This document shows positions 9,192 to 58,266 of a DNA stretch of 64,000 nt, in pieces (the stretch's first letter is position 1; each line of letters opens with the position of its first letter). The translations under genes and the position numbers were made by a program. Source of the stretch: Nannocystales bacterium (GTDB lineage: Bacteria > Myxococcota_A > Polyangia > Nannocystales > Nannocystaceae); NCBI GenBank assembly GCA_050633305.1, contig JBOEGF010000014.1, positions 395,436 through 459,435 of the forward strand, in the 5' to 3' direction. The notes beneath the pieces were generated by a model. The model did not search any database, was not told the origin of the DNA, and worked only from the letters and a program-made list of their open reading frames with translations.

Positions 9192-11261
9192 ATGCCCGCG
9201 ATGAACCTCCGCGCCAGTGTCGGTCTCGCGTCGCTCTTGCTCGCGCTCGGTTGCGCACCGCCCAACGCGGCGACGCCCTATCCTTCCGCGCCACCGGAGG
9301 TGGGGAGCGCATCGCCAGCGCAAGAGGCCGAGCCCGTGGCAGCACCGGAGCCGGAGGTTCAGGGCATTGCCAGCTACTTCGAGCGGGAGGTCGACCTCGC
9401 TCCGTTCCTCGCTGGCTTTCCGTACGGCCGCATGCGGCCGGACCTCAAGACCGGGAAGCTCTTCTATTACGAACTCGGTGAGCAGTACGCGCTGAAGATG
9501 CTCGACATCCCGAAGTCGGGCACCTGGGATCTGAGCGCGGGCGAGTCGATCTCCGATGTGGACTGGTCCAAGCGAAGCCTGTGGGGGATTCACCACCACG
9601 AGGATTCCAACACGCTATGGCTTCACGCCGACGAGTCGAACGACGAGGTCATGAACCTGTGGACGCTCGACCTGGGCTCGGGCGCGCTCGAGCAGGTGAC
9701 GCACCACGACTACGTCTACGGGTTGGGGTTCAGCGAGGACGAAACCCAGGTGGCCTACCTCCCTCGCAAGGGAAAAAAGGCGCCGTTCTCGACGTGCCTT
9801 CGGGTGCGAGACGTCAAGACCGGGGGGGAGCGTGAGGTGGTCTGCGACTCGCCGGACCTCACGTTCACGTGGTCCGACATCCGGTTCACCCCCGACGGCA
9901 ACGAGGTGTTCTTCAACGCTCAGGTGAAGGGCGATCGCACCAAGGGGCAGCTCGTGCGAGTTGACCTCCGCAAGAAGGCACCGAAGGTTCAGCTCGTCAC
10001 CAACACCAAGGTTTCGCGCAACTCGCCGTCTCCGCTCGAGGGCTGGAGCGGCAACGAACTGCTCTACACCGCCAACGACGACGGCTACTCCAACCTCTAC
10101 GCCTACGACCGGGTCACCAAGAAGACGCGGCAGGTCACCCGGTTCAAGGAGGACCTCTCGGCCGAACGCAGTGGAGACAAGGTCATGGGCGTCCACAAAA
10201 CGCCGGCGGGGTCCACGGTCGTTCTCATCGACCCGAAGTCCTCGAAGGTCCTGCAGACGCGAAAGCTCCCCGGGTCCGTTTCGCTCAGCGACGTCCATGG
10301 TGACCGCGCGTACCTGACCCAAACATCCCCCGACATCTACCTGGAGGGGTACTCGATGCGGCGCGGGGGGGAGTCGCTCGGCGACATGGAGACCGTGCTC
10401 GCCCTGGAACCAGAACTCCAGAAGCGGATCGTGGCCTGCAAAGCCAGCACCGTGAAGATCCCGACCTTCGACAAGGATCCGAAGACCGGCAAGACCCGGC
10501 AGCTCCACGCGTTCTTGCTCGAGCCGCGCGACCCGGTGCCGCAAGAGCAGCGCATGGCGATGATTACCGCCTTCTACGGGGGCTCCAACGGCTACAGCAA
10601 GTTCGACAACATCATGTGCGCGGCGGGTCTCACCGTGCTCTCGCCAGCTGTTCGTGGAAGCTCCGGCTTCGGCAAGGACTTCTACTCGCTCAACGACAAG
10701 GACCTCGGCGGGGACGAGATCGTCGATGTGCTCTACGCTGCGCGGTGGCTGGAGGAGCACACCGGGTTGTCCGCGCGCCGGATCGGCGTCAAGGGAGGGA
10801 GCCACGGTGGCTACGCAACGATGCGCGCGCTGACCTACCCCGCGGCGACCAATGGCCGCAACGAGTCCTACCCGCTGGGCTTCGGCATGGCGCACGCGGG
10901 CTTCAGCGACATCAAGACTTTCTACGACGCGACCAACATCCCCGACTGGGTCGCCCTCGAGAGCGGGGATCCCAACGTCCCCGCGGAGCTGGCCCGGATG
11001 AAGGACCGTTCGCCCATGCAGCACGTCGACCTCCTGCGCGCGCCGCTGCTGCTGACCCACGGCAGCAAGGACTGGCGGGTCCCGGTGGACGAGAGCCGGC
11101 AGTTCGCGAAGGCAGCTCGCGACCTGAAGAAGCCCGTGCAGTACGTCGAGATCGACGGCCAGGGCCACCACATCGAAGGGCTTTCGCTTCAGGTGCAGGT
11201 GTACCAAGCGCGGTTCGATTTCTTGGCTGCGGTGGCGAAAGCGGCCGCAGGCGCACAGTAG
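9192..11261 (+). CDS. S9 (prolyl oligopeptidase-family) peptidase lipoprotein
   Basis: Lipobox LALGC; beta-propeller-like N-terminus; GGSHGG nucleophile elbow, KDWRV Asp, GHH His. Confidence 0.9.
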   Translation: MPAMNLRASVGLASLLLALGCAPPNAATPYPSAPPEVGSASPAQEAEPVAAPEPEVQGIASYFEREVDLAPFLAGFPYGRMRPDLKTGKLFYYELGEQYALKMLDIPKSGTWDLSAGESISDVDWSKRSLWGIHHHEDSNTLWLHADESNDEVMNLWTLDLGSGALEQVTHHDYVYGLGFSEDETQVAYLPRKGKKAPFSTCLRVRDVKTGGEREVVCDSPDLTFTWSDIRFTPDGNEVFFNAQVKGDRTKGQLVRVDLRKKAPKVQLVTNTKVSRNSPSPLEGWSGNELLYTANDDGYSNLYAYDRVTKKTRQVTRFKEDLSAERSGDKVMGVHKTPAGSTVVLIDPKSSKVLQTRKLPGSVSLSDVHGDRAYLTQTSPDIYLEGYSMRRGGESLGDMETVLALEPELQKRIVACKASTVKIPTFDKDPKTGKTRQLHAFLLEPRDPVPQEQRMAMITAFYGGSNGYSKFDNIMCAAGLTVLSPAVRGSSGFGKDFYSLNDKDLGGDEIVDVLYAARWLEEHTGLSARRIGVKGGSHGGYATMRALTYPAATNGRNESYPLGFGMAHAGFSDIKTFYDATNIPDWVALESGDPNVPAELARMKDRSPMQHVDLLRAPLLLTHGSKDWRVPVDESRQFAKAARDLKKPVQYVEIDGQGHHIEGLSLQVQVYQARFDFLAAVAKAAAGAQ

Positions 11262-13537: not shown

Positions 13538-14002
13538 CTACGCGGCCGTGGCGGAGAGACCACCGGCGAGGTGGTTCGACAGTCCCGCGAGCGCGGTGTC
13601 GAACGCCTTGCCGAGCATGCGCTTCATCATCAGCGTGTTGACGACCCAACCGAACGGGCCGTACTGCACGCCATACACCACGGAAAACGTCACCTCGGTC
13701 TCGGTTGCCGACGCTTGGGCGACGCGGATGGTGACCACGGCGTCCTGCATGAGCGGAACCTCGGTCATCGACATCTGCACGTACTCGTGTTCGGACTGCT
13801 CGGTGACGGTCTCGACCGCTCCGCCGCCCCCGTGAAACTCGACCCGTCGGGACGCGCCGATGCCGACATCGTGGTCGGTGAGGACTTTGGCCGCAGCGAC
13901 GTTGGGGTGCCAATCCGCGACGGCCCCCATGCGGGAGATCGCCGTCCACGCGGCTTCGATGGGTGCGGGAATGACGAGGGACTTCTGAACTTGGTGTGCC
14001 AT
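13538..14002 (-). CDS. SRPBCC (polyketide cyclase/START-like) family protein
   Basis: IPAPIEAAW...WHPNV...GIGASRRV pattern typical of SRPBCC. Confidence 0.85.
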   Translation of the reverse strand: MAHQVQKSLVIPAPIEAAWTAISRMGAVADWHPNVAAAKVLTDHDVGIGASRRVEFHGGGGAVETVTEQSEHEYVQMSMTEVPLMQDAVVTIRVAQASATETEVTFSVVYGVQYGPFGWVVNTLMMKRMLGKAFDTALAGLSNHLAGGLSATAA

Positions 14003-14245
14003 TTTGGACTCTTGGAGCGGCGCTGCTTGGCCTGCTCACCTCGGAGACACATCCCAGCGTCGACCGTGACCGTTCGGGTCAGTGTTTTTCACTTTTTTCT
14101 CGGCGATGCCTCTAGCGTGCTCTCAGAGCGTATTGAGGGCCGCTTTGGGAGCGCGGTGCAGCTTGGGCCTGCCGAGAGGGCGAACAGTGCGCCAGGTCTC
14201 AGGTCCGCGTGAATCCACCCCCGCAGGTTCGCGTCTGCGGGAGAC

Positions 14246-14884
14246 ATGCATGTACGGCACCTGTGCTTGGTTCCCCTTCTGGTTTCCCTTGCCGCTTGCA
14301 AGGCTCTGACCGTGCCCGCGGGTCTCGAGGCGAGCGCGACCAAGATGCCCGTGGAGCGGGTGGACCGGAAAACCATGGCCTTTGGGGCGTACGACGTGAC
14401 CGAGGTGCGACGTGGGATGGCAGTGGGCGCCGAAGGAGGTATCGGGGGCGTGAGCGGGAAGCAGGATCAGCGACGGTTCTCGTTCACCCTGCAGCGGGAG
14501 GGCGACTCCTACGCGGTGACATGCAAGCGAAAGGGGTCCTCGGTGTCCGTGGGGGACTTCGCCGTCGATTCGAAAGAGGCGGTGGAGTGTGACCTGGCCT
14601 CTGGCGATGCTCCATGGTCGATCACGTTGGCTGGAGAAAAGAAGGGGGAGGTCCGCGGTCACCTCCGTCAAGGCGACCGAAAGATCTCCATTTCGCCGGC
14701 CCACGGCGGGATGTTCGGTCCACGCGGCTACTACATCCGCGAGGACCAAGAGATCGCTGCTGTGGATGTTGGGCGAAAGAGCAAGACGGTCTGGGTTCGC
14801 AACGAACTCGAACCGAAGTTCGCGCTCGCCCTGGCTGCAACGTGCACGGCGTTGATGCTGTACGACAACGGGCAGTCAGGCTGA
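14246..14884 (+). CDS. Hypothetical lipoprotein
   Basis: GGGAG RBS, lipobox LAAC, beta-rich body. Confidence 0.7.
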   Translation: MHVRHLCLVPLLVSLAACKALTVPAGLEASATKMPVERVDRKTMAFGAYDVTEVRRGMAVGAEGGIGGVSGKQDQRRFSFTLQREGDSYAVTCKRKGSSVSVGDFAVDSKEAVECDLASGDAPWSITLAGEKKGEVRGHLRQGDRKISISPAHGGMFGPRGYYIREDQEIAAVDVGRKSKTVWVRNELEPKFALALAATCTALMLYDNGQSG

Positions 14885-14907
14885 GCCGCGAGCCCAATCT
14901 CGCCACT

Positions 14908-46043: not shown

Positions 46044-47504
46044 TCAAGGAACCATCAGGAAGATCGCGACTCCGCCCTGGTGGTCCTCGGTCGCGCTGTG
46101 GGCCACCGCGATGTCCGGGGCACCGTCGCCGTTGAAGTCCGAGACGTCGGCGGCGGTGGGGCGACCCATGAGCGGCATGGTCACCAGCTCAGCCAGGGTG
46201 CCGTCGCCGTTGCCGAGCGCGAGGAACAAGGCGGGATCGTCTTCGTCGGCCGAGACGATCATGACATCGAGGATGTCGTCGTTGTTGAGGTCGACCACGT
46301 CGACGTCGACGCTCCCGCTCGCCGGCACGACCATCACGGGGCCCCATGTACCGTCCCCCACTCCGGGGGCAATCGAGACCCCCGCCGAATGGGTCATCAA
46401 GATCTCAACCTCGCCGTCGCCATCGAGATCGGCCGCGGCGAGGTCGGTCGGCTCGCAGCCGGCCTCGCCACACATGGGAATGTCGGTGCCCAATCCACCC
46501 GTGAACGTTGCGTCACCGTTGCCGCGGACTGGGACCACCCCGCCGCCTCCAAACCTCGAGGCTACGACGACGTCGGCGAAACCGTCGCCATCGAACCCGA
46601 ACTCTGTGACGGCAACGTGAGAGTCGCCGCCGGTTGCCTGGACCGAACCGTCACTGCCGCCCCCGGATGGACCCGCGATGTAGTTGCCACCGGACATGCG
46701 GCCGAGGAAGACGTTGGTGTTGTATCCCTCGGTGGCGACGATATCGATCGCGGGGTCGAGGTCCATGTTGCCCACGCCCATGCCTTCGGGACCACCGAAG
46801 CCGAGGTCCACAAACCCTCCGCCTTGAAATGCTCCCACCCCGTTGTTGAGGAGCCATACGGCTTGGCGCGACGCCCCTGCGACGATGTCGATGTCTCCAT
46901 CGGGCTCGAGGTCAGTCGCAGCCAGGAAGCCCGGCCCGCCACCCCCGCCGCCACCGCCGTTTCCGACGTCCGCGGAGATCGGGGGGCCGAAGCCGCCCGC
47001 ACCGTCCGAGGGGGCGACGAAGATCGCGTTGTCCGCAGGGCTAATCGTGATGACGTCGACCCGGTCGGCGCCTTGGAGCCGCGCCAGCACGAGGTCCGTC
47101 GGGTTCACGCCCATGCCCGTAATGACCGTCTCCGGAGCGTTCGGGGGGCAGAGTTCTCCGGGGTCGGCATTGCCGTCGTCACAGGCCGCTGGGGGGTCTC
47201 CTGTCTCGGAGCCCGTCGCGGGATCGGTGGGGTCATTCGTCGTGCTGGTGGGGTCGTCCGTCGTGGTGGACCCCGTGTCGGCACCGCTGGTCGGGTCCGT
47301 GGGGTTCGTCGTGGGGCTCGTCGTGGTGGCGGGGTCGGTCGTGCCCATCGTCGCGGTGCTCTCCTCAGACCCGGAGCCGTCGGAACTGCCCATGGGGTCT
47401 GTGTCGACGGTTGCGTCATCCGGGTTGAAGCAAGCGGGCGTGGCGAGCAATGCGAGGGTCGCCAGGAGAGAAGTCGGTCGGGTAGGGATCCTAAGGTGAG
47501 TCAT
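46044..47504 (-). CDS. FG-GAP/VCBS repeat lipoprotein
   Basis: PACFNPDD; DLDGDG, DLNNDD, DFNGDG repeats. Confidence 0.88.
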   Translation of the reverse strand: MTHLRIPTRPTSLLATLALLATPACFNPDDATVDTDPMGSSDGSGSEESTATMGTTDPATTTSPTTNPTDPTSGADTGSTTTDDPTSTTNDPTDPATGSETGDPPAACDDGNADPGELCPPNAPETVITGMGVNPTDLVLARLQGADRVDVITISPADNAIFVAPSDGAGGFGPPISADVGNGGGGGGGGPGFLAATDLEPDGDIDIVAGASRQAVWLLNNGVGAFQGGGFVDLGFGGPEGMGVGNMDLDPAIDIVATEGYNTNVFLGRMSGGNYIAGPSGGGSDGSVQATGGDSHVAVTEFGFDGDGFADVVVASRFGGGGVVPVRGNGDATFTGGLGTDIPMCGEAGCEPTDLAAADLDGDGEVEILMTHSAGVSIAPGVGDGTWGPVMVVPASGSVDVDVVDLNNDDILDVMIVSADEDDPALFLALGNGDGTLAELVTMPLMGRPTAADVSDFNGDGAPDIAVAHSATEDHQGGVAIFLMVP

Positions 47505-47545
47505 GGCGGTTTCCTTGGCGATCAACGCGGCAAAGGAGCGAGCAA

Positions 47546-48904
47546 CTACGGCTGGGCGAGCATGACACGCAGCCCGTCTACGCTACCACTGTGGTAGGCG
47601 ACGTCGTTGGCTCCGTCATCGTCGAAGTCGGCGACGACGAACTGCACACACGGGCTGGCGCTGAAGTGTTCGGGGTCTTCGAGGGCGGCTGTACCGTCGG
47701 CCGCCCAAACACTGATCGAGGCCAGCACCCCGCGACCACAGGTGACGAGGTCGTCCCGCCCGTCATTGGTCAGGTCGGCGAAGAGCGCAGACCGTGGCTC
47801 GCCCACCGCATCGAGTTCGACCGGAGCGGCGGGGCCACCGGGGCCACCGACGAACAGAAGTACGTCGTCGCTCTGGGACCTTGGGAACGCTGCTTCCGCG
47901 ATGCCGTCGCCGTCGAGGTCCGCGCTCGCGGCTCGGCCACCGACGACCTCCAGTCCTACAGGGATGTCGGTGACCGTGAAGGTCCCATCGCCACTGCCCT
48001 GCACGAAGGCGATCACGTCGCGATTTGGCTGACCGACGAGGACATCAGGTACAGCGTCGCCGTTGAAGTCCCCCCACGCCAGCGGGCCAGCGCTCTGGAT
48101 CGGAGCGGCGGCGGAGAACGTGAAACTGCCGGTGCCGGCTCCTCGGCCAAACGCATAGCTGAAGCCGGTGCTTCGCAGTACGAACACGTCGAGCACGTCG
48201 TCTCCGTCAAAATCAGCCGGCGCCATGCCTCCGGCGTTGGCGATGTCGTCCAGCGCCGCAGCCCCCGACTGGGTGAACGTGCCGTCGCCGTTGCCGAGAA
48301 ATGTTGTGACCACGGACGAGCTGCCGTTCGCGATCAGGTCGAGGTCGCCGTCGGCGTTGACGTCTGCGATGACGACGTTGCCCGAGCCGATCGACCCCAC
48401 GGTGTCAAACGTGGGCTGAACCGAGAAGTTGCCCGCCCCATCGCCGAGGTGGAGCGTGGCGTCTCGATCGGTGGCGGACAGCAGGTCGACGAAACCGTCG
48501 TTGTCGAAGTCGCCGCCAAAAAGGAAGTCGGCCTGCGGGCTCGCGAGGGTCGCGATGGGTCCGAGGCAAACCTCGCCAGGGCTCACGAGCCCGTCTTCGC
48601 ACATCGCCGGTGGACCGCTGGTGTCTCCTGTCGAGCTGTCCTCGGTGCCCGAGTTGCCCGTCGGCGCCCCGGTCACTGAGTCGTTCGTCCCGCCCGGTCC
48701 TGTGGTCGGGGCCGCGCTCGTTACGCTCGCGCTGTCGCTGCTCCCGTGGCTCGTGCCGGCGGGGTCGGTCTCTGACTCGTCTCCGTCGGTCGCGGTGTCT
48801 TGGATGGCGGATTGAGGCGCGGTGTCGTCGGGGTTGAAACACGCCGTCGGCGCAACGAGGAGGGCGGCGGTGGCCAAGCTTGGGAAGAAGTGGAAGCGGA
48901 TCAT
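47546..48904 (-). CDS. FG-GAP/VCBS repeat lipoprotein
   Basis: TACFNPDD; seven D(F/V/L).(G/N)D..D repeats. Confidence 0.88.
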   Translation of the reverse strand: MIRFHFFPSLATAALLVAPTACFNPDDTAPQSAIQDTATDGDESETDPAGTSHGSSDSASVTSAAPTTGPGGTNDSVTGAPTGNSGTEDSSTGDTSGPPAMCEDGLVSPGEVCLGPIATLASPQADFLFGGDFDNDGFVDLLSATDRDATLHLGDGAGNFSVQPTFDTVGSIGSGNVVIADVNADGDLDLIANGSSSVVTTFLGNGDGTFTQSGAAALDDIANAGGMAPADFDGDDVLDVFVLRSTGFSYAFGRGAGTGSFTFSAAAPIQSAGPLAWGDFNGDAVPDVLVGQPNRDVIAFVQGSGDGTFTVTDIPVGLEVVGGRAASADLDGDGIAEAAFPRSQSDDVLLFVGGPGGPAAPVELDAVGEPRSALFADLTNDGRDDLVTCGRGVLASISVWAADGTAALEDPEHFSASPCVQFVVADFDDDGANDVAYHSGSVDGLRVMLAQP

Positions 48905-49247
48905 ATCCAAGCCCGGGACAAGCCTTCCATGGCTCACGGGCCATCGCAAGACGATGCGGCCAAGGGACAACGTGCCTCCTGGCCGGTCAGGCGGAGCGCA
49001 TTTTTTCGAAGCTTTCTCTGTTCGCCGCGCAAATCCGGTCCGGGCGCGCATCGATCAAGGTGTTCACCCCACGGCGCCCTGACGTCGCGTTGTCGCAACT
49101 GCGCCCTCGCCACGCACGAACGTGAAGACGTCCGTGCGCGGCAGGCCGGGCGGCATGGCGAGTTCATCCCAACGGTTTTTTCGGGGCGTCAGAAACATCG
49201 GACTCGCAGCAAAGAGCAGGGGTTCGCAGCAACGGGAGCGCACGACG

Positions 49248-50366
49248 ATGAAGATTCTGATCCCAACTCTCACCCAAGACATTCACGCCAAGGTCGTCGC
49301 GCGAGCGCTTCGCCAGGACGGTCATGAAGTGACGTTGTGGTACGGGAGCGACCTTCCCTCTCAGCAGACCGTCAGCCTGGAGATCGACGGGGGCACCTCG
49401 ACGTTGGATCTCGCGGGGCGGGAGTTGTCCGCGCAGGGACCGTTCGACGTCGTCTGGCTTCGACGCCCTGCCGACGCTGTGCTGCCTGAGGACATGCACC
49501 CGGGGGATCGAGAATTCGCGGAGCGGGAGTGGTACCGGTTTGCCCGGGCCCTGTGGAAAACGGTCGGCCGAGACGCGTTCTGGGTCAACCCTCTGGAGGG
49601 CGCGGCCCGTGCCACCTCCAAGACGCGTCAGCTCTTGGATGCCGCGGCGGTGGGGCTGTCGACGCCTCGAACGCTGTGCAGCAATGACCCTGAACGCATC
49701 CGGGCGTTCATTCGGGAGAGCCCCGCGCAGACTATCTACAAGCCGTTCTGCACGGGGCAGTGGAGGACCGAAGAAGGGTCGGCGTTTCTATTCACGGCCG
49801 TGGTCACAGACGCCGACCTTCCGCCCGACGATGTCCTGCGGCTGTGTCCGGGCATCTTTCAGCCGCGCGTCGAGAAGTCGCACGAACTGCGCATCACCGC
49901 GATGGGAGACCGGCTGTTTGCCGTTCGGCTCGAGTCCCAGTCGCTCGACCTGGCGCGTGTCGATTGGCGCGCAGGCACCCGCAACATCGACATGAAGGTC
50001 GTCGAGCTCGATCCCGACGTCGAGAAGCGATGTCGTGCGCTGATGCGCCGCCTCGGCCTGGTGTTCGGGTGCCTGGACTTCATCGTGACCCCGTCGGGGG
50101 AGCACGTGTTCCTGGAGGTGAACGAGATGGGGCAGTTCCTCTGGCTCGAGGAGTTGCTTCCCGAGTTGCCACTGCTCGATGCCTTCTGCGCCATGCTCAC
50201 CCAGCGGCGCCCGGACTTCGAATGGGACCCTGCAACGGCGGCTCGATCGTTCTCCTCGCTGCACGACCCCGAGCGTGAGGCCAAGGCCGACGCTCAACAC
50301 ACTCGGCACCCCCAACGGTACGTGATGGACGACCGCACCCGCGTGGCCCCATCGCCGAGCGCATGA
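49248..50366 (+). CDS. MvdC/MvdD-like ATP-grasp peptide ligase (graspetide synthetase)
   Basis: GGGAG RBS; WLRRP, FWVNP, SK..QL..A..VGL.TP.TL.SND, IYKP, PGIFQ..VEK..ELRIT, DWR, FGCLDFIV....VFLEVN..GQFLWLE. Confidence 0.9.
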   Translation: MKILIPTLTQDIHAKVVARALRQDGHEVTLWYGSDLPSQQTVSLEIDGGTSTLDLAGRELSAQGPFDVVWLRRPADAVLPEDMHPGDREFAEREWYRFARALWKTVGRDAFWVNPLEGAARATSKTRQLLDAAAVGLSTPRTLCSNDPERIRAFIRESPAQTIYKPFCTGQWRTEEGSAFLFTAVVTDADLPPDDVLRLCPGIFQPRVEKSHELRITAMGDRLFAVRLESQSLDLARVDWRAGTRNIDMKVVELDPDVEKRCRALMRRLGLVFGCLDFIVTPSGEHVFLEVNEMGQFLWLEELLPELPLLDAFCAMLTQRRPDFEWDPATAARSFSSLHDPEREAKADAQHTRHPQRYVMDDRTRVAPSPSA

Positions 50367-50407
50367 GATTCGCCGGGAATCCCTCGGCGATTGGATAGGA
50401 AAAAAAC

Positions 50408-50581
50408 ATGAAACAACCCAACAAGGTCAACAGCAAGAAAAACGAAACCGCCACCGGAAGCCGGATCCTCGGTCGGCGCCTCGCCAAAGAGATGACCTCC
50501 GAAGAGATTCACTCGGTCACCGGCGGCACCACGAGCTGCAGCTGCGGCGGCGCGGACGACTGCGACCAGCAGGCGTTCTAA
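50408..50581 (+). CDS. RiPP precursor peptide, 57 aa, double-glycine leader
   Basis: Hand translation MKQPNKVNSKKNETATGSRILGRRLAKEMTSEEIHSVTGG|TTSCSCGGADDCDQQAF; AGGA RBS at 50397; lies between the ligase and a C39 exporter. Confidence 0.88.
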   Translation: MKQPNKVNSKKNETATGSRILGRRLAKEMTSEEIHSVTGGTTSCSCGGADDCDQQAF

Positions 50582-50601
50582 GCACCGTAGCCGCTTGGCT
50601 C

Positions 50602-50640
50602 GGCCGTCTCCACCTCGACCGTTGTGGGGTCGGGACGGCC
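50602..50640 (+). terminator. Stem-loop after the precursor (partial terminator or mRNA stabiliser)
   Basis: GGCCGTCTC...GGGACGGCC arms with further inner pairing, followed by pyrimidine-rich TCCCTTTCTCTC. Confidence 0.6.
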
Positions 50641-50652
50641 TCCCTTTCTCTC

Positions 50653-52089
50653 ATGCTGACTCACGACACCTGGCTCCGCGCGATGCTGGCGACCCTACGG
50701 TCCGTCGCCGTGCAACGTGATCCCAGTGCCGTCGAGGTGATCGTCCGCGAACTGCTCCTCGACCACGTTGGAGAACGGGCGCGCTGCCTGTTCTACGACG
50801 GCGACTCGCACGCCCTTTGGTGCTCCGACGAGGACGTCCCAAGCGACGCTCTTGGGCTGAGCCACGAAGCGGTGCGCACACTCGATGCGTACGTCGTCGA
50901 GCAGACGGCGGATGACCCTCGCGTGGTGCTGAGCGTCGACGATCCTGCGGCTGTGTGTGGGCGACTGTTGATTCAGCCGGTCTACACCGCCGCAGGCGAG
51001 GTGCACGCGGTCTTGACCGTGGGCCGCTCCATGGCTGCGCCGAGCTTCTCCGAGCGAGATCAGGCGCGCGTCTGCGACGTCGCGATGCGTCTGGCACCGT
51101 TGCTCGATCAACTGGCGTTGCAGGTGGAGCTCGATACCACCGAGGCCAAGACGGACCCCGGTGTCCCGAGCCTGCAGGGCCCCTATCGTCCCGAAGCAGT
51201 TGCCGCCTACATGACCCGCAGTGAGTGGGGCGAGGCGATGCACGTCAACTCCGGGTGGATCAGCGTCTCATACCGAATTCTGGTTTCGCTTCTCGTCGCA
51301 GCGGTCGTCTACGTGACGGCCGTCCCGGTGGGGGACTACGCGCGCGGCCCTGCTGTCGTTCGGCTCGGCGGGAGGGTGGAGGCCACAGCCCGAACCGGAG
51401 GCAGCGTTGTCGAAGTCTACGTCCGGCCCGGTGACGTCGTGGCGGCTGAGCAACCCCTCGTTCGGCTCCATGACGCCGCAGATGCGGCCGAGCTCCGGCG
51501 TCTGTCGGTCGAACTCGAGCTCAAGCTTCGCGCCATGCTCAGCGATCCGAGCGATGCCTTGGCCCGGGAAGCCGTCGCGCGCATCCGGGCCGAACAGGAA
51601 CGGGCCGAGCTCCGGGCTCGCGACCATGTGGTCCGGGCTCCCGTCGCTGGCGTTGTCCGAGACGTTCGGGCGCGCACGGGGCAGGTCGTCGAAGCGGGCG
51701 ACGTGCTCATGTCGGTGGGGGGCGAGCACTCCGCGCCGCAGCTGGTCGCGTTGATCCCCGGTGACGAGCGGCCGCGGCTTCGCCGAGGGATGGAGTTCCG
51801 TCTGGAGCTCGATGGGTATCCCGACGCGCCCCAAAGCGTGAAGGTCGACGCCGTCGACGAAGATGTGGTGAGCGCCGACGAAGCGCTACGGCTGCTGGGC
51901 CCCGCGGTCGCCCAAGGCCTGGCCGTCAATGGGCCGGTGGTGATCGTTCGAGCCTCGCTCTCCCAGGCCAGCTTCGTGTCTCGGCAGCAATCGTTTCAGT
52001 TTCACGACGGCATGCGTGGAGAGGCGGAAATCGAGGTGCGGACGACCTCGATCATCGAAGCGCTGATCCCCGCACTGGAGGAGCTATGA
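50653..52089 (+). CDS. HlyD-family adaptor with N-terminal GAF-like domain
   Basis: N-terminus LLIQPV...VHAVLTVGR...FSERD (GAF-like); TM; VYVRPGDVV and VRAPVAGVV lipoyl half-motifs; GMRGEAEI. Confidence 0.85.
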   Translation: MLTHDTWLRAMLATLRSVAVQRDPSAVEVIVRELLLDHVGERARCLFYDGDSHALWCSDEDVPSDALGLSHEAVRTLDAYVVEQTADDPRVVLSVDDPAAVCGRLLIQPVYTAAGEVHAVLTVGRSMAAPSFSERDQARVCDVAMRLAPLLDQLALQVELDTTEAKTDPGVPSLQGPYRPEAVAAYMTRSEWGEAMHVNSGWISVSYRILVSLLVAAVVYVTAVPVGDYARGPAVVRLGGRVEATARTGGSVVEVYVRPGDVVAAEQPLVRLHDAADAAELRRLSVELELKLRAMLSDPSDALAREAVARIRAEQERAELRARDHVVRAPVAGVVRDVRARTGQVVEAGDVLMSVGGEHSAPQLVALIPGDERPRLRRGMEFRLELDGYPDAPQSVKVDAVDEDVVSADEALRLLGPAVAQGLAVNGPVVIVRASLSQASFVSRQQSFQFHDGMRGEAEIEVRTTSIIEALIPALEEL

Positions 52090-54245
52090 CGGCCCTAAAG
52101 GGGGGAACCCGGAGCGCGCGGCGCAGGGTTCCGTTCGTCCCGCAGATGCAAGACGGCGATTGCGGAGCGGCCTGCCTTGCGATGGTCCTCGCCTTCCACG
52201 ACCGACCGGTCGAGATCGGACCGCTGCAGGAGGCGATCGGTGTCGACCGCAACGGGGCGGATGCGGGGGCGATGTTGGCGGCCGCCAGCCGGTTCGGCCT
52301 CCACGGGCGGGGCTTGTCCATCGAGGTTGAGCAACTCGAACAGCTGCCGGCTGGCAGCGTGCTTCACTGGGGCTTCAACCACTTCGTGGTGTTCGAACGC
52401 ACGACCTCGCGCGGGCTTGTGGTCGTGGACCCTGCTGCGGGGCGCCGGGTCGTGCCGTGGCCCCGGGTGCGCCGATCGTTCACAGGCGTCGCGCTCGAGT
52501 TCGAACCCTCCGTTGACTTCGATCCGCCCGCGCGGACCCCCAGCCGTCTCATCCCACTGTTGCGTCGGATGTTGGTGGACCCGCGGTTGCTCCTGCGCAT
52601 CGTCGTCACCTCGCTGAGCCTGCGGTTGTTCGCCCTGTCGGCACCGATCCTGACCGGGTTCGTGGTCGACCGGGTCGTGCCCCGAAACGACCGCGCAATG
52701 CTGTGGGCGGTGTTGGGAGGCCTGCTGTTGATGGTGGGCTTTCAAGCCGTGTCCTCGCTGCTTCGGGGTCACCTGCTGCTCGTCCTGCGCAACCGCCTCG
52801 ACGTCATGCTCAGCGTGGGGTTTCTCGGGCACCTCACGTCGCTCCCGTACGCGTTCTTTCAGCGGCGCTCGTCGGGTGACTTGATGATGCGGGTCAACAG
52901 TCACGCGACGATCCGGGAGATGCTCACGACCAACACGCTGTCGGCGCTGCTCGATGGCACGTTCGTCTTGGTCTACGTCGCCATCATCGTCAGCCTGAGT
53001 CCTGCGATGGCGGCTCTGGTGGTCGGGCTGGCGGGGCTCCAGCTGGTCATCTTCCTCTCGTCCCGTGGGCGGTACCGCGACCTGGCCGCGCAGGAGCTGG
53101 AAACTCGGGCTGTCGCTCAGAGCCACCTCGTGCAGTTGATCGGCGGCATCGAAACGCTGAAGGCCCAAGGCTGCGAGCGTCGGGCTGTCCAGCGGTGGAA
53201 CCACGCGTTCGTCGACGAGATCAATGTCTCGCTCGCGCGGGGCCGGCTCGCTGTTCTCATCGAGGCGGCCACCACCGCGTTTCAGACCCTGGCGCCGCTT
53301 TCGGTCCTCGGGCTGGGCGCGTTTGAGGTGATGAACGGCGGGCTCTCCCTCGGGACGATGCTGGCGCTCAGTGCTCTCGCGGCTGGCGTGTTGGGCCCGT
53401 TGCGTTCGCTGTTCGACAGCGCCCTGCAGCTGCAGGTGCTTCGCGGATACGTCGATCGAATTGACGATGTGTTGCGGGTCGCACCGGAGCGCGATCACTC
53501 GACTGGACGCCCCGCCCCGCGGTTGCGCGGGTCGATCTCCCTGCGAAACGTCAGCTTCCGCTACCAGTCCGGAGGCGCCGCGGTCCTCGAAGACATCAAC
53601 GTCGAGGTCGAGGCCGGGTCATGCGTGGCGATCGTCGGGTGCTCGGGTTCTGGAAAGTCGACGCTCGCCAAGCTCATGCTGGGGCTGTATGAGCCCGACG
53701 AAGGCCAGATCGAATACGACGGTCACGATCTGTCGGGTCTCGACTTGGGGAGCGTCCGCCGTCAGCTCGGCATCGTCATGCAGAGCCCGCACCTGTTCGG
53801 AGGATCGGTTCGCAGCAACATCGGTCTGGGTTCGCTCCGGGCAGAGATGGTCGATGTCCGTGCCGCGGCGGAGCAGGCTTGCATCCATCGCATGATCGAG
53901 GCGCTCCCGATGGGATACGAGACCATCGTGGGGGACGACGGCGCTGCGTTTTCCGGGGGGGAGCGACAACGCATCGCGCTTGCCCGCGCCCTCGTGGGAC
54001 GCCCGGCGATCTTGTTGTTGGACGAGGCGACCAGTGCGCTCGACACCGAAGCCGAGCGGGCGGTCATGGGGAACCTGGCGACGCAACGGGCGACCCGCGT
54101 CGTCATCGCGCACCGCATGAGTACCGTCGCGCAGGCGGATACGATTCTGGTCCTCGACCGGGGACGGATTGTCGAGAGAGGCACGCACGAGTCGCTCATG
54201 GCTCAACGGGGTCGCTACTACGAGCTGGCAGGGGGTCTGTCGTGA
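52086..54245 (+). CDS. Peptidase-containing ABC transporter (C39 + TMD + NBD)
   Basis: QMQDGDCGAACLAM, HFVV, VVDPA; Walker A GCSGSGKS, FSGGERQ, LLLDE. Confidence 0.95.
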   Translation: MTALKGGTRSARRRVPFVPQMQDGDCGAACLAMVLAFHDRPVEIGPLQEAIGVDRNGADAGAMLAAASRFGLHGRGLSIEVEQLEQLPAGSVLHWGFNHFVVFERTTSRGLVVVDPAAGRRVVPWPRVRRSFTGVALEFEPSVDFDPPARTPSRLIPLLRRMLVDPRLLLRIVVTSLSLRLFALSAPILTGFVVDRVVPRNDRAMLWAVLGGLLLMVGFQAVSSLLRGHLLLVLRNRLDVMLSVGFLGHLTSLPYAFFQRRSSGDLMMRVNSHATIREMLTTNTLSALLDGTFVLVYVAIIVSLSPAMAALVVGLAGLQLVIFLSSRGRYRDLAAQELETRAVAQSHLVQLIGGIETLKAQGCERRAVQRWNHAFVDEINVSLARGRLAVLIEAATTAFQTLAPLSVLGLGAFEVMNGGLSLGTMLALSALAAGVLGPLRSLFDSALQLQVLRGYVDRIDDVLRVAPERDHSTGRPAPRLRGSISLRNVSFRYQSGGAAVLEDINVEVEAGSCVAIVGCSGSGKSTLAKLMLGLYEPDEGQIEYDGHDLSGLDLGSVRRQLGIVMQSPHLFGGSVRSNIGLGSLRAEMVDVRAAAEQACIHRMIEALPMGYETIVGDDGAAFSGGERQRIALARALVGRPAILLLDEATSALDTEAERAVMGNLATQRATRVVIAHRMSTVAQADTILVLDRGRIVERGTHESLMAQRGRYYELAGGLS

Positions 54246-55180
54246 CTCGGCGCGTGCTCTGGAACGCTCTTTGGCTCGTCGTTGCGGCGGGGGCCTGCAG
54301 GCCATCGGAGGGGCCGACAGAAGCAAGGAGGGGACAAAGCGGTCCCGAGTCCGGCCCCGTGGGCGCTGCAGACCCGCCTTCGAACGCTTTTCAGCCCGAT
54401 GAAAGGTCCGAGGCCGACGGGTATGTCGCGGTCGTGGTCGCCCCGCGGGCCGTGGACCTCTCGGCGCCTGTTCGCGGCATCCTGGTGGAGCAGATGGCGA
54501 CGCTCGGTCAAGAGGTGGCCACCGGTGATGTCGTTGCCCTCGTTCAGGCGCCCGCGTTGCCCGAGGAGATCGAGGCGGCTCAAGCGGCGCTCTCAGGGGC
54601 CAAGGCTGGGTTGAAGGGGGCCCAACTCGCGGTGTCCCAAGCCCGCCGGGAGACCCACCGTGAACGCGCTCTCGTCCAGCGCGGTGCCAGTACGACCGAA
54701 GCCCAGGACCGAGCGGAGGCGAAGCTCGAGAGCGCCCAAGCTGCGGTTCGGGAGCGAACGGCTCAGGTTGCAGAGCGCGGTGCCGACCTGCGGCGGCTGC
54801 GTGCACTGCGGGAGGCCGGCTACGTCCGCGCTCCGTTCCCGGGCCGGGTTGGGGCTTGGTTCGAGGCGCCGGGGTCGGTGGTCGGCCCCGATGATGCCGT
54901 GGTCCGACTCACCGCTGCCGAGCGGCTCTGGGTTCGCTTTGCGGTCCCTTCGACTGACGTGGACGCCGATGGTCTCGCCGTCGGCCGAGCGGTCACCGTG
55001 CATCCGGCCGGAGGCCTGCCGTCTGCCACCGCCACCATTGCTCGTATCGCGCCCGAGCTCGACCTTGCGTCTCAGATGATCGTCGTCGAGGCTCGGTTGC
55101 ACCCCTCGGCCACGATGCGTCCAGGATTGGCGGGGCGCGTACTGTTGGCCGCACCGACTCCCCCGGAAGCCCGTCCATGA
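54242..55180 (+). CDS. Second periplasmic adaptor (RND/HlyD MFP) lipoprotein
   Basis: GTGA overlap with the ABC stop; lipobox AGAC; LSAPVRG, coiled coil, VRAPFPG, MRPGLAG. Confidence 0.88.
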   Translation: MTRRVLWNALWLVVAAGACRPSEGPTEARRGQSGPESGPVGAADPPSNAFQPDERSEADGYVAVVVAPRAVDLSAPVRGILVEQMATLGQEVATGDVVALVQAPALPEEIEAAQAALSGAKAGLKGAQLAVSQARRETHRERALVQRGASTTEAQDRAEAKLESAQAAVRERTAQVAERGADLRRLRALREAGYVRAPFPGRVGAWFEAPGSVVGPDDAVVRLTAAERLWVRFAVPSTDVDADGLAVGRAVTVHPAGGLPSATATIARIAPELDLASQMIVVEARLHPSATMRPGLAGRVLLAAPTPPEARP

Positions 55181-56112
55181 ACCGACCTCTCGTTCTTCTC
55201 TCCACCGCGACCCTCCTGTGTGCGGTCTCGTGTGCCAAGCCAGTCCGGTCGGTCGCCGCGCTCGACCCTGTCGCTCCGGACCCCGATCCCGTCGCAGCTG
55301 AACCCGGACCCATCGCCGACCCCGCGGCGGCGGAATCACCGATCGACTGCGGTGCCCCCATTGAGGGGTCCGAGCCGTTGCTCGAACCGGGACGACTCAT
55401 CCTCATGGGAGAGCTGCACGGCACCACGCAGATACCGATGTTCGTCGCCGAGCTCTCCTGCAAGGCCGCGCGGTCGGGCACCGCAGTCCGACTTGGTCTC
55501 GAGATCCCACGCGCGGAGTCCTCCGCCGTGGCCGCATTTCTGGCGTCCAACGGCGACGAGGCGGCTCTTGCAGCCCTGACCGCTGGTTCACACTGGACAC
55601 GTCCGGACCAAGACGGTCGAAGCAGCGTCGCCACCGTGTCCGTGCTCGAGCATGTCCGGCGCTGGCGCAATGCAGGCCTGGAGATCGTGCCGTTTGCGTT
55701 CGATGTCGACGAGCACGGGGCGTGGAACGAGCGGGACGCGTCGATGGCCGCGGAGATTCTCAAACACTCCACGGCCGACCCGGACGCGCTGGTCCTCGTG
55801 CTGTCCGGCAACCTGCACAACCGCACGAGCGTTGGCTTGCCGTGGGACCCCGAAGCGGTGCCGATGGGAGTGAGCATCGCGGGCGCACGTCCGGACATGC
55901 TGAGCCTCGACGTCCGATATCGAAAAGGAACCGCGTGGATCTGCGCTCCCCAATGTGGTGTCGCCGAGATCGGCGGCAGCCAGGCAGCCCCGGGCGAGAC
56001 AGAGCGTTCGGTCGCTCTGTTTGAGAGTCCGAACGAGTTCGGGCACCACGGGGTGTTCACCGTCGGTGCGGTCGAAGCCGCCGTACCCGCTGTGGCAGGG
56101 GAGTCTGGATAG
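55177..56112 (+). CDS. EreA/ChaN/TIKI-like lipoprotein
   Basis: ATGA overlap; lipobox AVSC; MGELHGT, LGLEIP, ERDASMA, LSGNLH motifs. Confidence 0.65.
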   Translation: MNRPLVLLSTATLLCAVSCAKPVRSVAALDPVAPDPDPVAAEPGPIADPAAAESPIDCGAPIEGSEPLLEPGRLILMGELHGTTQIPMFVAELSCKAARSGTAVRLGLEIPRAESSAVAAFLASNGDEAALAALTAGSHWTRPDQDGRSSVATVSVLEHVRRWRNAGLEIVPFAFDVDEHGAWNERDASMAAEILKHSTADPDALVLVLSGNLHNRTSVGLPWDPEAVPMGVSIAGARPDMLSLDVRYRKGTAWICAPQCGVAEIGGSQAAPGETERSVALFESPNEFGHHGVFTVGAVEAAVPAVAGESG

Positions 56113-56136: not shown

Positions 56137-58179
56137 TCAGCGCGGTGGTGCGATGTCGTTCATCCACGGCATCGGTTTCAGCCCGGGTCCGCGAGCTTGG
56201 GTGCTCACCCAGTCATCGTCGAGGCGCTCGAAGTTCTCGGTGATGACCTCGGCGTAGCTGGACACGAACCCGCGGTAGGCGATGCCGTCGATCCTGACCT
56301 CGATCAGCTGCGGAAATCCGGTGGCGGCGTGCAGCACCTTGCCCACCAGATTTCCGAGGTCATCCGTGGGTTGAGTGTGCACATCGACGATGGTCGGGCG
56401 GTGGAACTTGGCGGACTCGTTTCGGTAGTAGATGTCTGCCAGCCACCCGCCGACCGTGTACGAGACGTCGGACCCGGACCCGACCCTCTCGCCGTGGATC
56501 GACACCGCGTGATTGACGAAATCGAGGTGGTCGGGGGTCATCGGGAGGCCCTGCCGCTCGTTGCTCGCAATCTGGCGTAGCGTGCTCATCACGGCGGCCA
56601 GGCGTTCGAAGTACTGCTTCATCGCGCCGTCGTCGTCGAGTTGGAGGTCGTCGGCAAGCGTTTTGCCATGCTCCGCAAACACGACGAGTCGGGCAAAAAA
56701 CTCCGGGTAGGGATCGACGTAGGCCTTCGGGTAGCTACACCCTGCGATCACGGTGACCGACTGTTTGGCGTAGAGGATTGTGTCGTGGCGTCGCTCCGCC
56801 CAAGATGCGAGCTGCGTGTTGAGGACCCGGCGCCGCCACGCAGGCGAGGTCATCACCTTCGGGAGACCCGTGGGTGCCTGTCCAGAGAGCGTGCGCAGGG
56901 CATCGAGCCAGAGGTGCGACATGCTTCCTTCCCACAGTCCGGGCCCTGCCGCGTCGAACTCTCGCTCCATGCGTTCGAGTGTCGGGCGTAGCGCGGGGTA
57001 ACGTTCGTACTCGGCCGCCAGAAGTGTGTCGGCCTCCGGGTTCCCAAAGATCGCGGCTGCGATGTCCAGAGTGTTGGGCATCATCCGCATCGCGCGCTCG
57101 GGTTCGACGATCGGGAGACTGTCGTAGCTGGTCGTGCTCAGGAGATGACTGTCCGCGATGTAGCGCTGACCGAACACCCACAGGGGGATCGTTTTCTCCT
57201 CCTGCCGCACCATCTGCGTGTTGATGCGCTGTTGCGAGAGCGGCCCCAGCGTGTTCAGAATCTGAGCGGCGTCGAGACTGCCGACGGATTCCCACGTCAG
57301 GCCGATCGTCTTGGCGGCGCCTGCGAACTGCGGCAGCGACATCGAATCCGCCGGCCCAACCATGAGCTGGGTCGCGCGGTCGATCCGGGCCCAGGCCTGC
57401 TGCGCTCGGGGAGTTTGAGACTCCCACAGTACCAGCGCACCCGCGAGGGCTTCCCGTTTGACCTCCAGCGGCCCTGGCCCGTCAGTATGTGCGAGCCGAA
57501 GTTCGATGCGCCCTAGCCAAGACAGCGCACGAAAATACCGCTCCAGCTCAGGGCTACGGGTGTAGTGGCCCCGTGGCTTCATCATCGAGAAGTCGACCAG
57601 CATCGGCTCCCCAAACAAGTGTATCTCCTTCGCACCTTCAGCCGCGATCGCAGCTTCGGTGAACTCGCGAACTCGCTGCGGATCTGCTCCCGCCACTGGG
57701 GCGACGGCGCCACCGTTGAGCAAACCCTTTGCCACCGAGACGATGAGGTCGACCTCGGCTCGCGCTTGTCCTGAACTCCCCGCGTGCTGGGGGAGCTGGT
57801 CTCGAAGCTCATCGAGAAAGACGCGGAGTTCGCCGATGAGAACCTCATGCTCGAGATCGATCAGAATGTCGTCGAACGAGGCATGAACCGCATGGAGTAC
57901 GGCGTCCGCGGTGATGTAGACCGGCTGGTCCTCCTCGAACAGGGCCGAGTAGCCGAAGTGAAAGCTCGGTGCGGTCACCGACGGGACGATGACGAAGCCG
58001 TTGTCTTCCGCGGCCCGGCTGGCGACATCGGAAAGCGGCGCAGTGGCTTCTGCCTTGGTCTTGTCCAGCAGCTGAAGCGGTGCCGCGTCTCCTCCCGTTC
58101 GCCGCTGGAGGACCTTGCCGCTGCATCCGAAACCGATGCAAGCGCTGAGAGCCGACCCTACGGCGAGTGACCGACGCAC
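56137..58179 (-). CDS. DUF3160-like lipoprotein
   Basis: PVYITADAVLH, DFS..KPRGHYT, LNTQLASWAE.RHDTILYAKQS, IVDVHT. Start uncertain. Confidence 0.85.
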   Translation of the reverse strand: MRRSLAVGSALSACIGFGCSGKVLQRRTGGDAAPLQLLDKTKAEATAPLSDVASRAAEDNGFVIVPSVTAPSFHFGYSALFEEDQPVYITADAVLHAVHASFDDILIDLEHEVLIGELRVFLDELRDQLPQHAGSSGQARAEVDLIVSVAKGLLNGGAVAPVAGADPQRVREFTEAAIAAEGAKEIHLFGEPMLVDFSMMKPRGHYTRSPELERYFRALSWLGRIELRLAHTDGPGPLEVKREALAGALVLWESQTPRAQQAWARIDRATQLMVGPADSMSLPQFAGAAKTIGLTWESVGSLDAAQILNTLGPLSQQRINTQMVRQEEKTIPLWVFGQRYIADSHLLSTTSYDSLPIVEPERAMRMMPNTLDIAAAIFGNPEADTLLAAEYERYPALRPTLERMEREFDAAGPGLWEGSMSHLWLDALRTLSGQAPTGLPKVMTSPAWRRRVLNTQLASWAERRHDTILYAKQSVTVIAGCSYPKAYVDPYPEFFARLVVFAEHGKTLADDLQLDDDGAMKQYFERLAAVMSTLRQIASNERQGLPMTPDHLDFVNHAVSIHGERVGSGSDVSYTVGGWLADIYYRNESAKFHRPTIVDVHTQPTDDLGNLVGKVLHAATGFPQLIEVRIDGIAYRGFVSSYAEVITENFERLDDDWVSTQARGPGLKPMPWMNDIAPPR

Positions 58180-58266
58180 CCCTTGACTATGGACACGTGA
58201 GTCCCTGGCCTTCAACCGCGGTGGGGCGAAACTTCGGAGGCTCGGTGGGCGCGCGCCGCGACACCG

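Follow-up and report, generated by a model that had tools for sequence, protein, structure and literature searches.

A predicted group 8 graspetide cluster with double-glycine export and an EreA-like lipoprotein in a member of the Nannocystaceae

The window analysed here is a 64,000-nucleotide stretch of DNA (G000:C14:395436-459435) lying within the 11.0-Mb, 92% complete genome of a Nannocystales bacterium. At window positions 49248-56112 it carries a cluster of six plus-strand open reading frames (ORFs), all open and none interrupted as read from the sequence, which are predicted to encode the synthesis, cleavage and export of a graspetide. In this class of peptides that are made on ribosomes and modified after translation (RiPPs), ATP is used to phosphorylate carboxylates and esters are closed (PMC13097080). 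The features, by window position, are as follows.

49248-50366, + strand: predicted graspetide synthetase (ATP-grasp macrocyclase), group 8, 372 amino acids (aa)
50408-50581, + strand: precursor, 57 aa
50408-50527, + strand: precursor leader, residues 1-40, with the GG codons at 50522-50527
50528-50581, + strand: core peptide TTSCSCGGADDCDQQAF, 17 residues, plus stop
50653-52089, + strand: GAF-HlyD fusion, periplasmic adaptor, 478 aa
52086-54245, + strand: peptidase-containing ABC transporter (C39, ABC membrane and ATPase domains), 719 aa
54242-55180, + strand: second periplasmic adaptor (RND-MFP-like), predicted lipoprotein, 312 aa, GTG start
55177-56112, + strand: EreA/ChaN/Tiki-superfamily hydrolase-like protein, predicted lipoprotein, 311 aa

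The initial annotation had described six genes on one strand, the last four joined by 4-bp overlaps, and this arrangement is present with intact frames; genes 3-6 overlap at ATGA (52086-89), GTGA (54242-45) and ATGA (55177-80). Gaps of 41 and 71 nt separate ligase from precursor and precursor from adaptor, respectively, and a purine-rich stretch precedes the precursor ORF. Homologues align with the ligase from its first residue, which supports the start at 49248. The GC content of third codon positions is 0.73-0.83 across the six genes, with the precursor at 0.83. A promoter scan of the cluster found none, and the one terminator-like hairpin (50626-50642) carries no weight, as 3.3 are expected by chance. 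Foreign composition was also considered, and the cluster GC of 67.1% vs 65.9% for the genome gives no signal.

The cluster is more than a chance assembly because the identical six-gene order recurs in three other genomes of the same family (loci L154, L158 and L159+L160). Another family locus, L157, matches this order for genes 1-5 and lacks the sixth; its export genes are followed, in place of the EreA-like gene, by one more adaptor and an RND-type pump ORF of 1052 aa (identified by eye; L157:12994-17328). Two more (L155 and L156) have the set and keep the precursor-ligase-export order, with accessory genes moved or the GAF part undetected. Four precursor homologues are 67-85% identical. Ligase, precursor and exporter are co-conserved across phyla. 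The distribution within the family is patchy, with close ligase copies in 5 of 71 other genomes, and the ligase was not found in any of the six other genomes of the same genus, which are 72-94% complete. A phylum-wide search of 401 genomes returned only the own genome, a weak result since four candidates per genome were scored. In one relative (G051; L159:5553-6263 and 13670-14890), a copy of ligase residues 1-143 sits some 8 kb upstream of the intact gene, and ORFs judged by eye to be transposase-like separate the two.

Pfam gave no match on the full-length ligase or the precursor, and the ligase was resolved by NCBIfam, where it scores 211.6 bits with TIGR04187, 178.2 with MvdD and 174.0 with MvdC, vs 17.8 with RimK and 15.6 with glutathione synthetase (GshB). 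The initial assignment to graspetide synthetases, for which clustering with RimK/GshB-type enzymes would have been contrary evidence, is thus upheld (174-212 vs 16-18 bits). The scores lie below the curated cut-off of every NCBIfam model, which speaks against the assignment; two published group 8 ligases score likewise, also below the cut-offs. All six Protein Data Bank (PDB) sequence matches of the ligase are ATP-grasp chains, the best being 5ig9 (E=1e-37). The motif residues K125, K165, E213/R215, D239-W-R241, D277 and E290/N292, which we take to have ATP-binding, metal-binding and catalytic roles, are present.

The closest named ligase, WP_266215262.1 (68% identical over 362 residues), is listed as group 8 in the dataset of Carter et al. 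(2026; PMC13097080, supplementary file 2), as are WP_106391303.1, WP_146157569.1, MFV8756398.1 and MFV8750613.1. Groups in that network were cut at an alignment score of 70 (PMC13097080). The present ligase scores about 149 and about 114 against two group 8 members, values computed pairwise from BLAST bits by the EFI formula. The precursor points the same way: at least six TTSCSC rows in the published table are all group 8, the precursor associated with WP_266215262.1 has a core that differs from this core at three positions, and two Enhygromyxa salina group 8 precursors are identical to it in core residues 1-15 (15/17; PMC13097080). Because scores of about 149 and 114 stand far above 70, the cluster does not form an undescribed subgroup, a possibility raised by the initial annotation, and near-identical precursors are in the dataset as well. 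The cluster almost certainly belongs to group 8 of the graspetides; its product is already predicted in public data, and the locus adds another member. Membership of group 16 (thatisin), suggested by the leader, was rejected, the nearest ligases being group 8. Literature searches, with few subscription papers among those covered, retrieved no paper for the phrase 'group 8 graspetide' and none on this Cys-rich core. Among the available rows of supplementary file 2, Cys-containing cores ending in DDCD also occur behind unrelated leaders, in group 28 and in unnumbered groups (rows 19180, 20269 and 20741; PMC13097080), which suggests reuse or convergence of the core motif.

Related precursors were collected with an iterated profile (156 matches, representing 132 unique strings in the fetched loci). 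Double-glycine leaders as a rule have hydrophobic residues at positions -4, -7 and -12, and the present leader has V(-4), I(-7) and M(-12) before G39-G40. It also has a recognition-like motif, RILGRRLA, of the general form R-[ISVLT]-x-x-R-x-x-A, found in 111 of the 132 relatives, and this motif may be the ligase-binding site. Leader motif and GG-type site are general among the relatives, and the cores are diverse. The reported lack of the microviridin PFFARFL motif holds for this leader and for all relatives (0/132), and a single core free of Glu, unlike the TTxxxxEE repeats of plesiocin, is likewise found as described. As in graspetides generally, the precursor adjoins the ligase and carries conserved Ser/Thr donors and Asp acceptors. 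Of the two chemistries initially put forward, Ser/Thr-Asp/Glu esters agree with the class, and amide rings are not expected since the core has no Lys.

The transporter matches PF03412, PF00664 and PF00005, all above cut-off, and it retains the C39 triad (C26/H99/D115) together with undamaged Walker A, signature, Walker B and H-loop motifs. A C39 Cys-His-Asp peptidase fused to an intact ABC transporter thus accompanies a GG leader, and these features, with the -4/-7/-12 pattern, support the predicted cut after G40. Cleavage behind the double glycine and export by this transporter are very likely on these sequence features. Group 8 often co-occurs with an NHLM-type peptidase transporter (PMC13097080), and in Rheinheimera, for a different group, cleavage at GG by a C39 domain was shown to free a graspetide core (PMC11626197).

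The first adaptor matches HlyD_3 (E=8e-16). Pfam gave no GAF match on the whole protein, and the N-terminal 176 aa match PF13185 (GAF_2; E=1.7e-5) below the gathering score; six of nine homologues also match GAF_2. The structural model (pLDDT, a confidence score, 85.7) has Foldseek matches to GAF domains, e.g., 5w10 (E about 2e-7, TM-score about 0.7). The GAF-HlyD label of the initial annotation is therefore borne out by the profile on the isolated domain and by the predicted fold. Hydropathy and domain matches place the GAF domain at about residues 1-165 and one membrane helix near 209-227. Six of seven complete family clusters were found to have the domain, as were two loci that are more distant; for HlyD paralogues of the same genome, alignment to the fusion begins only at about residue 175. 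Such an architecture has precedent, as GAF-HlyD fusions have been described in another context (PMC4452313). The second adaptor matches HlyD_3 (E=4.5e-13) and scores 90.2 with TIGR01730 (cut-off 94.9); its lipobox, read by eye, has Cys19, which makes it a predicted lipoprotein. An HlyD and transporter module occurs four more times in the same genome, three times with the second adaptor. No outer-membrane channel was found within the cluster.

These data are best explained by a group 8 pathway with three nested esters, C39 cleavage and export, and an EreA-like ring opener, which as a whole is considered probable. The ligase would bind the RILGRRLA helix of the leader, as its conservation suggests, phosphorylate Asp carboxylates with ATP and close esters to Ser/Thr side chains in a hairpin wiring, with T1-D13 outermost and S3-D11 and S5-D10 within. 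The transporter would cut off the 40-residue leader, while the GAF-HlyD and lipoprotein adaptors would help to move the core out through an outer-membrane channel presumably encoded elsewhere. The GAF domain might, speculatively, couple export to a cytoplasmic signal. A C4-C12 disulfide could form after export, leaving C6 free. The EreA-like lipoprotein, outside the cytoplasm, might then open the ester rings, either for self-protection or as an off-switch.

The sixth protein matches PF04187 (29.7 vs a cut-off of 27.7), and its structural model (pLDDT 87.5) has an EreA/ChaN fold, with EreC (6xcq) as the best fold match (E=1e-6, TM about 0.5) and also as the best PDB match by profile. The EreA/ChaN-like lipoprotein label is thus supported by a score just above cut-off and by the modelled fold. 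All 14 homologues share residues E79, H81, E109, R186 and H214 without change, and these align with E47/H50/E78/R261/H289 of EreC, which hydrolyse a macrolide lactone (PMC7979712); the E/H/E/R/H catalytic set of the Ere family is therefore found on the EreA/ChaN fold. The Ere family model itself, PF05139, gave no match to the sixth protein and only weak ones to 2 of 14 homologues (best E=6e-4), all 14 of which match PF04187. Judged by its aligned residues, the protein may work like Ere though not filed as one.

The gene is present in six of seven complete family clusters, and no family genome with a close ligase (E <1e-100; six, own genome included) is without it. Among long loci it occurs in 6 of 14 with ligase identity of at least 45.5% vs 1 of 41 below, a threshold picked after the tree was seen. 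Its position varies, either after the adaptor or directly upstream of the ligase (L006, L007, L074, L081 and L090). It also stands beside more distant ATP-grasp ligases, including one in an alphaproteobacterium (L052:8001-9339, L190:1253-3295 and L197:7083-10010), so the EreA-like/ATP-grasp pairing recurs beyond the close clade. An erythromycin-esterase homologue was noted beside two gammaproteobacterial graspetide loci (cluster 575), for which 'additional modification or resistance' was proposed (Makarova et al., 2022; PMC8939145).

There is close to an even chance that the sixth gene encodes no ring-opening esterase at all, and instead a core-trimming periplasmic peptidase, a binding or receptor protein, or a passenger of RiPP loci. 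The fold family includes non-esterases, among them heme binders and effectors, and the non-esterases lack the EreC minor lobe (PMC7979712); the present protein has 311 aa, against 408 in the EreC structure, at a TM-score of about 0.5, and one homologue is named as a TraB/GumN family protein. Of 18 family genomes that gave a match, twelve lack a close ligase, 8 of 12 EreA-like neighbourhoods have no cluster gene at all (some of them on short contigs), and no match came from G073 and G075 (completeness not stated), two genomes that carry the same core type. These figures count against a dedicated ring opener, and an obligatory role in core synthesis was rejected on the last two. The invariance of all five catalytic-type residues, the recurrence next to ATP-grasp ligases in different orders and lineages, and the 6/14 vs 1/41 contrast favour the ring opener. 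The sixth protein is accordingly viewed, tentatively and from its residues and gene context, as an accessory extracytoplasmic hydrolase, for which ring opening is the favoured role at somewhat less than even odds.

The ring pattern was approached through co-variation in 34 unique cores in the register x-x-[STC]-x-[STC]-x4-D-D. Asp13 accompanies Ser/Thr1 in 19 of 23 cores and is missing from all 11 cores that lack Ser/Thr at position 1. Among the 27 cores not ended early by a stop, the proportions are 19/19 and 0/8, i.e., the two residues are kept or lost together in 27/27. Positions 4, 6 and 7 show no link to Asp13. The paired losses map to no fewer than four distinct branches, read by eye, of a ligase tree (125 sequences, FastTree, midpoint root) from which exact duplicates, matches shorter than 230 aa and 22 loci labelled as duplicates had been removed. 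Group 8 'DDCG' precursors agree in 3/3 cases among the published rows listed, all being without Ser/Thr1, and two of these come from other phyla and lie outside the present set (PMC13097080). The co-occurrence suggests an outer ester T1-D13 and, with S3-D11 and S5-D10 presumably nested inside it, an arrangement of three nested esters that is somewhat favoured. The calculated monoisotopic mass of the core is 1707.58 Da before modification; three water losses would bring it to 1653.55 Da, and an additional disulfide to 1651.53 Da.

Several points weigh against so definite a pattern. Position 2, too, has a weak correlation with Asp13 (p=0.017), the p-values are overstated owing to kinship among the rows, the register may be shifted in three rows (two from L043, one from L123), and four cores with Ser/Thr1 end before position 13. 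Co-variation is silent on the pairings of S3, S5, D10 and D11 because the rows were chosen on positions 3, 5, 10 and 11.

The same pathway with another wiring is, by comparison, unlikely, be it crossed S3-D10/S5-D11 esters, two esters only, or a thioester between C4 or C6 and Asp. T1-D13 is the sole pairing open to co-variation, the class is known to include interlocked rings (PMC13097080), position 5 holds Cys in place of Ser/Thr in 7 of 34 related cores, in one of them as the sole core Cys (L007/L090), and ester-forming synthetases accept Cys in engineered substrates (PMC12291112). In the present core, however, Ser/Thr occupies each of positions 1, 3 and 5, one for each of the three Asp, C6 lacks conservation (6/34), and an outer T1-D13 ring is the simplest fit with nesting. 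A ladder of S3-D13, C4-C12, S5-D11 and C6-D10 was disfavoured for similar reasons, Asp13 tracking position 1 and C6 being variable.

Four loci have Cys at donor positions 3 or 5 (L006, L007, L090 and L004, with precursor ends at 9301, 9316, 9315 and 9465, respectively), which hints that their cores are candidate natural thioester graspetides; in the portions available of PMC13097080 and PMC12291112, thioesters are mentioned as non-native or engineered only. C12 occurs in 15 of 17 cores with C4 vs 6 of 17 without, and a C4-C12 disulfide that leaves C6 free is weakly supported by this pattern, being weakened because C12 also occurs where C4 is missing. It is rather improbable that the cluster represents a subtype combining three nested esters with a cystine brace, having relatives that form peptide thioesters through natural Cys donors, and carrying a dedicated EreA-like lipoprotein as a hydrolase of peptide macrolactones.

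That the ligase is of RimK/GshB type beside an unrelated small ORF and transporter, or the cluster a dead remnant, is very improbable, for although the ligase reaches no model cut-off and has no match in the six genus relatives, RimK and GshB score about 190 bits under the graspetide models, ligase, precursor and exporter are conserved together, and no frame or catalytic motif is disrupted.

Upstream of the cluster and divergent from it, window positions 46044-49051 on the minus strand hold a tandem pair of FG-GAP-repeat lipoprotein-like genes, with similar ORFs from 41326. Downstream, a DUF3160 gene (PF11369, E=3e-124; window 56137-58215, minus strand) is convergent with the last cluster gene, and only 24 nt separate their stop codons. 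Elsewhere in the same genome, a second, plesiocin-like graspetide cluster was found (L165:4254-9574; G000:C10 about 588250-593570). Its 72-aa precursor is of the double-glycine type and carries four TT(L/M)A(V/L)GEE repeats; the other genes encode a divergent ATP-grasp ligase (94.6 bits with TIGR04187), an HlyD protein without GAF, a C39-ABC transporter and an adaptor. Beside it, a further HlyD/C39-ABC/adaptor module adjoins a gene with lantibiotic-dehydratase domains (PF14028, PF04738; L165:11762-18919), and the region is probably a multi-RiPP locus. Two more export modules of this genome lie on the contigs labelled C39 and C14.

As a new family the cluster matters little, because group 8 and near-identical precursors are already in the published dataset. 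Group 8 has no ring structure in the literature examined, and the compact 17-mer offers a testable prediction of a T1-D13 outer ring. The EreA-like neighbour bears on the 2022 suggestion that such enzymes modify or detoxify graspetides (PMC8939145). If EreA-like proteins do open peptide macrolactones, these would be a class of natural substrates for proteins related to macrolide esterases, and the present protein would be the first ring-opening self-resistance or off-switch enzyme for graspetides, linking RiPP immunity to macrolide esterases.

The nearest known systems are the predicted group 8 members of Paraliomyxa miuraensis (WP_266215262.1), Enhygromyxa salina (WP_106391303.1, WP_146157569.1) and Nannocystaceae ST9, with ligases 54-68% identical to the present one and the same GG leader type. 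That the closest named homologues come from these organisms is in keeping with a Nannocystaceae myxobacterium as host. The E. salina precursors differ from this precursor only in the last two core residues and the N-terminal leader. The literature searched yielded no report of production or a solved structure for the Paraliomyxa, Enhygromyxa or ST9 peptides. Gra-7A/B of Legionella pneumophila, also group 8, undergo three water losses, and LahT150 released the modified core of precursor A; according to the sections available, yields prevented ring mapping, and ring positions and activity were never determined (PMC9576775). Gra-7A/B have an R-x-L-A leader ending in GG, and their three dehydrations equal the number predicted here. 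Their core is longer, with donors and acceptors four apart and one Cys, in contrast to the compact T-x-S-x-S...D-D-x-D with three Cys, a difference that weighs against the reading proposed here.

Thatisin of Lysobacter antibioticus belongs to group 16. In that species, precursors of this group pair a leader much like the present one (R-x-L-A-R-x-x-A-R-E-L...I-S-GG) with a single Thr/Asp core, and the group co-occurs with transporters as group 8 does (PMC13097080). It differs in its network group and in a Pro-containing core with cis/trans isomerism and no Cys (PMC13097080, PMC10849128); a regex search of nine loci retrieved no thatisin-type precursors. Microviridins (group 1) and plesiocin (group 2) share the ATP-grasp macrocyclase fold, and the chemistry predicted here, with the present ligase (PDB matches 5ig9, 7m4s, 7mgv and 7drm). 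Unlike the microviridins, this system has a single ligase, no PFFARFL leader and no Lys in the core, and unlike plesiocin, its precursor has a single core without Glu in place of repeated TTxxxxEE cores. The sixth protein, shorter than EreC, a predicted lipoprotein and 13% identical to it in the structural alignment, has the fold and the catalytic residue set in common with that macrolide esterase.

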